Shown piece by piece: positions 14-1,533 of a stretch of 7,781 bases of DNA. The stretch lies in IMG/VR virus record IMGVR_UViG_2529292923_000001, one strand, 5' to 3'. The stretch comes from a virus (Monodnaviria > Loebvirae > Hofneiviricota > Faserviricetes > Tubulavirales > Inoviridae). How positions within the stretch are numbered: position 1 is the stretch's first letter; each line of letters starts with the position of its first letter. The notes under the pieces are model-generated. The model was not told where the DNA came from and made no database searches. It saw nothing but the letters and a program-made list of their open reading frames with translations. Both the position numbers and the translations under genes were made by a program.

Positions 14-252
14 TGTTATCAGGACTGATGAAAACCGAAGGCCAGTCATCACCAGAATTGCTGTAACCCATCAATTTCATCAACTGGCCACATCAATGCA
101 TGGACGACTCACGCCTTGCGTCGTTCGTCTCGATAGCTGCCCTTTAAAAGCGGCCTGGCAGGAAGCGCGTTGCGCTGTCTCCTGCTGCTCTGTAATTTCT
201 CCCTGGCTTCGGCGGTCAGGCAGCTGCATCACATGAAACATCACATGCCGCC

Positions 253-1533
253 TTACATGCCGCGTTGCGGCATCATTTGCCAACCCTGCGAGCATGAAGC
301 ACCACTAATTATATCCGTCCGGTTATTCTCATCTGATTTGCCTGTAAAACCCGGCAAAAATGAAAAACCTGTCCGCGACTGCGTCAGCTTACTGCTGGCA
401 AGGCCACCAAGCACAAGTAATTCACCGTCCTTAACATCAACCTTTGTGCTGATTTCCCGCTTCGTCAGTGTCGGGCTGGAGTTAACGCCTGTCGTTGTCT
501 TTACAAAATCGCTCAGTTGCTGGCTGATATCCAGTGTTATCAGTCCGTCAAGCACAACCGGCGTTACTGTAAAAATCGCCCCGCTGTTCCTGTATGTCAC
601 AGACTGGACTGGCGTTCCGCTGCTGCCCTGATAGCTGACACTGTCCAGCACCGGAACTTCCTGACCCACAGTAAACTGCGACTTACTGCCGGAAAGCACC
701 GTAAGACGCGGATTACTCACGACATTAAAGCGTGAATCCTCTTTGATCAGACTGTAAAACGCATTCAGCCCTCCAACATTCAGCGTAAACGAATTACCCC
801 CATCAAGACGAGCCCCCACAGACATCCCCAGTTTATTACGGAACAAATCAGCAATAATTTGCAGTCCGGTTGCATTGCGGTCTGTCGTCTGGACTTCAAG
901 AACATAGCCGCTCACCGTTACCTGCTCTGCCGGAACGTCAATACGCGGCAGTATTTTTTCTATCTGCCGGACGGATGCTGCCGGACCGGAATAAACCAGC
1001 ACTTCGGCATCCGTTGCGATCGACATACGCGTCGATGCACTGTCTGTCGTGGTTATACCTGACACACCGCCAGACAAATAATCGACGGACTGAATATGAT
1101 TACTGAAAGCCCCGGAAGAAACCACAGAGTTAAGCATTGCCGATAAATAACTCACGCTGCGGTATTTAGGGCGATAAGTAAAAACCACATCAGGCACTTT
1201 CTGCTCAGTCTGCTTTATCACTGAAATGTAATCCACGCCATCCTTCATCGACGTGACGCTGATATTCAGGCGTTTAAGGTATGAAATAAAAAAGCTTCGC
1301 GGCTCCTGATTTTTACTCAGATAGAAACTGACAAGTCTTGTGTCTCCTGCAATATCCGGCGACAACTGATAAGGGCGATTAAAAACCCGTTGCCAGACCA
1401 TGCTGATAACCTGAGGTAAAGGCGCATTGTCCATTGACATCTCCACACGTCGTGCCTCACTTTCTGAAACGGCATAAGCCGGAGAAAAAAATGATAAAAG
1501 CACAAATGAAAAGAATACGGTGATCAGTTTCAT
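253..1533 (-). CDS. secretin, pIV-like phage export channel
   Basis: 426-aa ORF with an N-terminal signal peptide ([21 protein letters not shown]) and a C-terminal secretin-like region ([20 protein letters not shown] ... GELLVLGGL). The ATG at 1533 overlaps the stop of the upstream pI frame (ATGA), and the gene sits last in the morphogenesis operon as in Ff phages. Confidence 0.88.

Follow-up and report, generated by a model that had tools for sequence, protein, structure and literature searches.

A conserved module next to the attachment site

We analyzed a stretch of 7,781 nucleotides (nt; IMG/VR virus record IMGVR_UViG_2529292923_000001; hereafter, the window), which is one unit of a filamentous, inovirus-like prophage that is integrated at the dif site of Escherichia coli and carries its genes on the minus strand. 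Our subject is segment 14-300, the interval between the hairpin of the attachment (att) site and the end of the pIV secretin gene. Within it lies a module of ~213 nt, reading from position 273 to position 61 on the viral strand, that we put forward as a candidate origin of complementary-strand synthesis. Its anatomy is described with reference to alignment A3, which comprises 21 distinct homologous copies, drawn from IMG/VR contigs as well as annotated E. coli records and aligned in the viral-strand orientation. The features of the module are as follows.

61..273, minus strand (the viral plus strand): conserved noncoding module, candidate complementary-strand origin, possibly with more cis functions (alignments A2 and A3).
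257..273, minus strand: hairpin A, ATGCCGC-AAC-GCGGCAT (inverted repeat I7; family consensus, ATGYC-loop-GRCAT).
211..252, minus strand: stem-loop B, whose outer stem pairs GGCGG (252-248) with CCGCC (215-211) and which contains the CATCACATG repeats.
177..210, minus strand: variable spacer between stem-loop B and hairpin C, the least conserved part of A3 (~columns 77-110), with a 1-nt insertion or deletion (indel) at column 99.
164..176, minus strand: hairpin C, AGCGC-AAC-GCGCT, whose core GCGC-AAC-GCGC is invariant in 21 of 21 copies, with all four pairs constant.
152..162, minus strand: motif CCTGCCAGGCC, with 5'-CTG-3' at 161-159 as the candidate primer start; CCTG is invariant in A3, and the IncFII/IncI homologues share the motif.
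106..161, minus strand: hairpins D (CTGCC at 161-157 with GGCAG at 141-137) and E (129-106), with weak to moderate support.
61..100, minus strand: 3' domain with three copies of TTGATG (96-91, 83-78, and 74-69), ending in TTACAG (66-61) and nearly invariant in A3.

Identity across the 21 copies ranged from 75 to 99% (A2 and A3), and the flanking sequences diverged fully on both sides. The module was present in 71 of 5,426 complete E. coli genomes (205 places in all). In IMG/VR, a first count gave 16 contigs with the module, and 2 more were added later. A second scan of IMG/VR, using a pattern built on the A and B domains, returned one extra phage copy, one partial copy, and four plasmid-like contigs. 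The phage collection contained no match to the whole window (megablast) or to segment 14-300 (blastn). A scan of one genome per species with ACAGCGCAACGCGCNNCCTG returned 50 stretches, none of which came from Enterobacteriaceae or matched the element by blast; they seem to be matches that G+C-rich genomes give by chance.

The carriers differ in how they replicate. One type consists of phages like that of the window, with a "replication initiation factor." A second type encodes a Rep protein of the II/X family and includes a 7.4-kb circular replicative form, and a third combines a gpA-like replication endonuclease with an IS110 transposase and is inserted away from dif. Further carriers are tandem satellite-like units with only rep, ssb, and small genes. 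Because the module occurs in backbones with three Rep types, it is not a Rep-specific plus origin, and its presence in phages inserted away from dif means that it is not tied to Xer. Besides the module, the DNA that is shared with several backbones consists of the att hairpin and, in some, positions 7344-7486.

An example of the satellite-like arrangement is found in one E. coli record (L005, 4951-12300), where two tandem units of ~3.56 kb adjoin a full filamentous prophage in the dif region. Both contain a regulator, rep, ssb, and two small genes, each with a separate copy of the element and of the att hairpin. The arrangement resembles the RS1/CTX arrays of Vibrio cholerae.

Each unit carries one full copy of the module, always intergenic and always in the orientation of the phage genes (7 of 7 annotated loci). 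Among the IMG/VR contigs, the strand of the element was the majority coding strand in 15 of 16. With this constant relation to the gene strand, the signal in the phage loci lies on the strand that is used as template in its single-stranded form.

The original prediction had raised the possibility that the segment is a recombination scar or a site of variable accessory or virulence cargo beside att, and it had described a sharp change in base composition at 250-300. The segment does adjoin the phage attachment site (attP), and it is G+C rich, at 53.7% compared with 43.6% for the whole window. We found no sharp border, however: the adjacent 3' half of pIV (253-1100) has a G+C content of ~50-51%, and that of 551-700 is again 56-58%. 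Comparison with related phages showed, rather than variable cargo, a segment that is conserved at the DNA level across otherwise unrelated filamentous phage backbones, where it is one of only two or three such stretches. It is also carried by phages that do not use dif, has sharp borders common to all backbones, and brings no mobility functions of its own. We therefore regard a scar or cargo site as a very remote prospect.

Neither strand appears to encode a protein

Open reading frames (ORFs) on both strands had suggested that the segment might encode one or more small proteins. The ORFs are there: one of 76 amino acids (aa) on the plus strand (6-236), with its ATG within the XerC arm of dif; one of 71 aa on the minus strand (80-295), which overlaps the pIV ORF (253-1533); and a further ORF that begins at a TGATG stop/start overlap (82-78) and runs past the left edge. 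In addition, RefSeq records a "hypothetical protein" of 50-55 aa over the homologous stretch in some records and often nothing at all.

These frames are not maintained in relatives. Indels of 1 nt occur among the 21 copies at A3 columns 17, 24, 43, 99, 145, and 146, and translation in the register of the minus-strand ORF meets stops in nearly every relative. Substitutions per site at codon positions 1, 2, and 3 were 0.81/0.74/0.72, 0.69/0.86/0.71, and 0.80/0.89/0.82 for the candidate ORFs, a flat pattern with no excess at the third position. A homology search with the candidate proteins found no Pfam match and, in PHROGs, a single insignificant one (E = 0.24). Given the indels, the stops, the flat codon-position pattern, and the lack of family matches, neither strand is predicted to be coding, and we consider it extremely improbable that the minus ORF, the plus ORF, or the 50-55 aa ORFs of relatives specify proteins. 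The sequence is G+C rich and poor in stops, and the ORFs on both strands are a by-product of this.

Conserved stem-loops on the viral strand

The short repeats that had been noticed in the segment turned out to be the arms of the conserved stem-loops A and B rather than independent features. An inverted repeat at 257-263/267-273 (7 bp, with a 3-nt loop) forms hairpin A. Two copies of CATGCCGC lie at 244-251 and 256-263, and an additional, unrelated copy lies at 6529 (3 matches versus 0.23 expected; 0 of 200 shuffles reached 3). The window also has two copies of CATCACATG, at 227-235 and 239-247 (2 matches versus 0.09 expected; 1 of 200 shuffles reached 2). Only the first of these is general, since all relatives have CATCATCATG at the position of the second, where the window has a 1-nt deletion (A3 column 43).

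The hairpin had been placed exactly at the pIV stop, and this holds loosely. In relatives, pIV (419 aa) stops with a TGA at the equivalent of 275-273, which abuts the foot of the hairpin. The stop of the window, a TAA at 255-253, results from one additional T (306), which puts the last ~20 pIV codons out of frame compared with those relatives. Either a real mutation or an error of assembly could account for this T. Over the pIV tail (253-330), the protein of relatives ends in NNRTDIIVVLQARRVGK; the window differs, and only here does the frame read through hairpin A.

Several of the stems are supported by compensatory change. In 12 sequences from phages and plasmids, pairing of hairpin A is 100%, and 3 of the 12 show a change from C:G to T:A. 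The outer stem of B is likewise 100% paired, with a change from G:C to C:G in 5 of 21 and 3 of 12 sequences, and the inner part of this stem-loop includes an invariant TTTCA at 238-234. Pairing reaches 90.5% in hairpin D, with one double change from C:G to A:T, and 99.2% in hairpin E, where the single changes are all wobble compatible. Across the 21 copies, the whole structure, which was defined manually, is 95.7% paired and has 12 double-change cells, compared with 3.8 ± 1.6 in shuffles. Controls in which the structure was slid along the alignment were only 20-48% paired.

Homology to IncFII and IncI plasmids

Part of the module also occurs on plasmids. Positions 202-275 of the window match 2,831 plasmid records at ~80% identity, with E values of ~1e-6 to 1e-7 among the matches listed. 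The matching plasmids are mostly conjugative and come from Escherichia, Klebsiella, Shigella, and Salmonella. In plasmid R100 (record L006), the region matched by blast is 776-850 bp beyond the stop of repA; alignment lengthens the homologous stretch to ~2945-3075 of that record, which corresponds to ~90389-90519 of NC_002134. This R100 segment recurs in at least 5,000 IncFII and IncI/K plasmids at 90-100% identity, and most of the matches listed have no annotation there. With respect to the landmarks of R100, which include the DnaA box of oriR at 2401-2409 and a Ter-like sequence at ~2768-2785, the homologous stretch starts ~360-400 bp past the oriR region, which begins at that DnaA box, and lies beyond the Ter-like site. 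Hairpin A, stem-loop B, and the CCTGCCAG motif follow in the same order in phages and plasmids, and a MAFFT alignment places the phage CCTGCCAG(A/G)CC opposite CCCTGCCAGACC of R100, pLS45, and IncI plasmids.

In the four plasmids that were examined, the counterpart of the viral strand runs antisense to repA. The minimal oriR of plasmids R1 and NR1 measures ~188 bp. Replication reportedly moves away from repA, and for the leading strand the primer is reported to be made by primase alone, at a "G site" that lies ~400 bp downstream and close to the 3' end of repA4. If these points hold, the homologous segment would be that priming site, and the antisense strand would be the template for synthesis moving away from oriR. 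The element has features expected of a G-site-like priming signal: homology to the conserved site ~400 bp past oriR, placement on the template strand, and stems with compensatory change.

One IncI plasmid, pSH146_87 (L086; ~1560-1600, minus strand), has TACGG in place of the TACTG of R100 after a plasmid-specific hairpin and keeps the shared CCCTGC. Because it lacks a CTG after that hairpin, the true primer start in plasmids may be the shared CCTGCC.

Plasmid matches to 61-215 in two other records (L083 and L084) were rejected as independent plasmid elements, as they look like prophage remnants beside ISNCY transposases.

The strand relation on plasmids bears on the possibility that the module acts at the level of RNA, as a stabilizer in the 3' untranslated region, a terminator of the pIV operon, or a small RNA. 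The module does sit at the 3' end of a long phage operon, and conserved stems with compensatory changes fit an RNA as well as a DNA signal. On the plasmids, however, the homologous strand is antisense to genes that run in the repA direction, so that the transcriptional context is not conserved and the strand relation to DNA synthesis is. A scan of 1-600 yielded no promoter-like or terminator-like site, and a search of Rfam, at both gathering and permissive thresholds, yielded no meaningful match to the element. We consider a role at the RNA level improbable.

A phage-specific 3' domain

The 3' TTGATG domain is absent from the plasmid homologues and specific to phages. Inspection by eye for a DnaA box or an integration host factor (IHF) consensus within it gave no convincing match. 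It may be a packaging or protein-binding signal.

In phages of the IS110/gpA type, a 47-nt TTGATG domain is repeated two or three times at a spacing of 339 bp. The repeats lie at 19313-19388, 19652-19727, and 19990-20065 in one such record (L009) and at 5652-5727 in another (L011), and they overlap small ORFs annotated as hypothetical on the opposite strand.

The main alternative to an origin is a packaging (morphogenetic) signal, in which the element or its 3' domain would start assembly at the membrane and, being shared, would let helper phages package satellites. The position directly downstream of pIV matches the established layout of the Ff phages (M13, f1, and fd), the orientation is constant, and each satellite-like unit has one copy even though it has no structural genes. 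That the 3' domain is phage specific and repeated in some phages is also what a packaging signal would lead one to expect. Yet the Ff signal is one long imperfect hairpin, whereas the stems here measure 4-11 bp with no long one within 61-273, the 3' domain hardly folds (z = -0.75), and attP forms the longest hairpin in the intergenic region. Moreover, the structural modules of the carriers differ (DUF2523 versus DUF5455 pVI-like proteins), which leaves no obvious common protein partner, and the 5' domain is common to plasmids, which are not packaged. We judge packaging to be unlikely as the function of the element, and least so for the 3' TTGATG domain.

A candidate origin of complementary-strand synthesis

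We favor, by a modest measure, the reading that 273→61 is a noncoding, strand-specific cis element within the large intergenic region of the phage and that it acts as an origin of complementary (minus)-strand synthesis, or single-strand initiation signal, and that it is probably primase dependent. After infection or rolling-circle replication, the viral strand would be coated by single-stranded DNA-binding protein (SSB) and would keep its short G+C-rich stem-loops (A, B, C, and perhaps D and E). These stem-loops would be recognized by a priming enzyme of the host, which would lay down one RNA primer for DNA polymerase III to extend into the double-stranded replicative form. The priming enzyme is most likely DnaG, because the 5' domain is homologous to the putative G site of the plasmids. 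The most likely primer start would be the CTG at 161-159, which follows hairpin C and CNC. Function, enzyme, and start site are all proposed here from sequence comparison.

The conversion of single-stranded to double-stranded DNA requires host enzymes only and not Rep (PMC5714925). For this reason, one module could serve phages and satellites with unrelated Rep proteins, as well as a plasmid, and its exchange among elements of a common host would fit this picture. The original prediction had also offered an origin or packaging region as an option; that option found support, and it is the homology to IncFII and IncI plasmids by which the evidence favors a complementary-strand origin.

Several observations weigh against an origin of this kind. 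The plasmid homology is limited to ~75 nt plus an 11-nt motif, and the 100 nt at the 3' end are phage specific and fall outside it. We take the homologous plasmid segment to be the probable G site on the basis of earlier literature and positional landmarks. The structure was defined manually from the same sequences that were used for the pair counts, which makes those counts supportive rather than decisive, and the covariation rests on three or four pairs. The consensus that RNAalifold derived from A3 was weak and included a dubious long-range helix; the manual structure was used instead. Folding z scores are modest (-2.3 for the part from A to the CTG and -0.75 for the 3' part). In the minimum-free-energy fold of the window, the candidate CTG is paired with an upstream CAGG; the corresponding CTG of phage G4 is single stranded. 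Finally, comparison of the element with the origins of G4, St-1, alpha3, and phiK by blastn at word size 7 returned only chance matches of 7-11 nt.

A broader proposal can be entertained tentatively and with low confidence. In it, the element would be a horizontally exchanged cassette for the conversion of single-stranded to double-stranded DNA, common to conjugative IncFII/IncI replicons, at least three replication types of E. coli inoviruses, and their satellites. Host primase rather than RNA polymerase would prime the minus strand, and the 3' TTGATG domain would be a shared packaging or hijack signal for satellites that depend on different helpers.

The surrounding prophage and its attachment site

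The genes of the prophage and its attachment site are as follows.

5468-6694, minus strand: rep.
5123-5458, minus strand: single-stranded DNA-binding protein.
4695-4970, minus strand: major coat protein.
2862-4385, minus strand: pIII-like protein.
2503-2787, minus strand: pVI-like protein.
1766-2491, minus strand: Zot/pI-like protein.
253-1533, minus strand: pIV secretin gene, GspD-like, 419 aa in relatives; its 3' end enters hairpin A in the window only.
1..21, minus strand: dif-like XerC arm, one of the two arms of the forked attP hairpin; the second arm and the loop are found beyond the unit junction, at 7699-7781.

A prophage element 99.3% identical to that of the window occurs in E. coli RIVM_C039227 (L001) as two tandem copies of 8,000 bp at dif. 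There is a complete dif at the left end, and two inverted dif-like sites lie between the tandem copies. The attP site (7699-7781 plus 1-21; 9905-10025 in RIVM_C039227) consists of two inverted dif-like sites that form a forked hairpin of ~45 bp with a 6-nt bulge on the viral strand. Its fold on that strand is very stable (-43.7 kcal/mol, z = -11.9). In duplex form, the site has XerD-like and XerC arms separated by 11 nt on one strand and by 5 nt on the other. The CTX type is defined by a pair of inverted dif-like sites, and CUS-1 of E. coli and Ypf of Yersinia are listed among its phages (PMC4246890). With its inverted dif-like pair and forked viral-strand hairpin, the att site beside the element is a CTX-type Xer attachment site.

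Some features of the window lie outside the module. The Zot/pI-like gene is split (1530-2491) into a part of 241 aa and a 75-aa ORF, and it encodes 352 aa in RIVM_C039227 and in a second relative (L003). The window lacks ~91-99 bp near 1598 compared with RIVM_C039227 and differs by more small indels. These differences may reflect a defective prophage or a sequence of lower quality. A tract of GSGT/GTGS repeats in the pIII-like protein (3131-3344) varies in length, the protein having 507 aa in the window and the gene 1,704 nt in RIVM_C039227. On the plus strand, opposite the phage genes and just before the att hairpin, an ORF of 46 aa (7553-7693) would specify a strongly hydrophobic peptide (MHDMILDLLMKYLIAGSLFGMFLFSVITIVLPIVLRAHNKINRSND). 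It carries no annotation in RIVM_C039227; a small membrane peptide, a toxin, and a chance ORF are all conceivable. Positions 7344-7486 are a G+C-rich, noncoding stretch with 90% identity in the satellite-like units described above (L005) and in one other record (L067), despite different neighboring genes, and may be a third exchangeable cis module.

Significance

To our knowledge, minus-strand origins are known in detail only for filamentous phages of the Ff type, in which RNA polymerase makes the primer, and they are uncharted for the many inoviruses that integrate into enterobacterial genomes. The element offers a concrete candidate for the signal by which these phages and their satellites are made double stranded. 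As it recurs across unrelated backbones, it can also serve as a marker for finding such elements. Small ORFs in regions of this kind keep receiving hypothetical-protein annotations, and the element gives a reason to drop spurious gene calls. More generally, it illustrates how phages and plasmids of one host trade replication signals that depend on that host.

Comparison with known systems

The Ff intergenic region resembles the element in its place after gene IV, its strand logic, and its expected job. In Ff phages, the packaging hairpin is followed by a minus origin that depends on RNA polymerase and then by the plus origin. The Ff minus origin mimics a sigma-70 promoter within long hairpins, whereas the phage element has no promoter-like hexamers and its stems do not exceed 11 bp. 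No -35 and -10 hexamers within a long hairpin, as in Ff or Frpo signals, were found, and positions 1-600 held no promoter-like sites. The Frpo/ssi promoters in the leading regions of F and ColIb-P9 are structured single-stranded DNA signals that prime or transcribe incoming strands (PMC11541004). Frpo spans ~330 nt and includes a long hairpin that bears -35 and -10 sequences, unlike the phage element. We tried Frpo1 and Frpo2 as possible relatives and set them aside, as they gave only word matches at chance level. Because promoter-like hexamers, a long hairpin, and similarity to Frpo are all lacking, an origin of the RNA-polymerase type is unlikely.

The likeness to attP of the CTXphi type, with its inverted dif-like sites, 6-nt bulge, and very stable fold, belongs to the att site and not to the element. 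The element is separate from attP and also occurs in phages whose integration site is not dif.

The origin of G4, like those of St-1, alpha3, and phiK, uses primase and SSB and starts at a CTG after stem-loop I. This origin and the phage element both occupy ~120-135 nt of the viral strand and have three G+C-rich stem-loops, with a CTG 2-3 nt past the last stem. As annotated, the G4 origin consists of three stem-loops followed by CTACTG, where the primer starts, a general layout like that of the 5' 125 nt of the phage element. The stems of the phage element are shorter, and its CTG is perhaps paired in some copies.

A direct relative in sequence is the putative G site of the IncFII plasmids R1 and R100 (NR1), together with its IncI and IncK counterparts. 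The phage element is homologous to it over hairpin A, stem-loop B, and CCTGCCAG, and the template strand is equivalent. Where the phages have a spacer and hairpin C, the plasmid site has the hairpin CCGGC-GTAA-GCCGG followed by TACTG and a longer spacer, and the phages add a 3' domain of 100 nt. Taken together, the element is best classed, as far as sequence allows, with the known single-strand initiation signals and as a relative of the IncFII/IncI site downstream of oriR.

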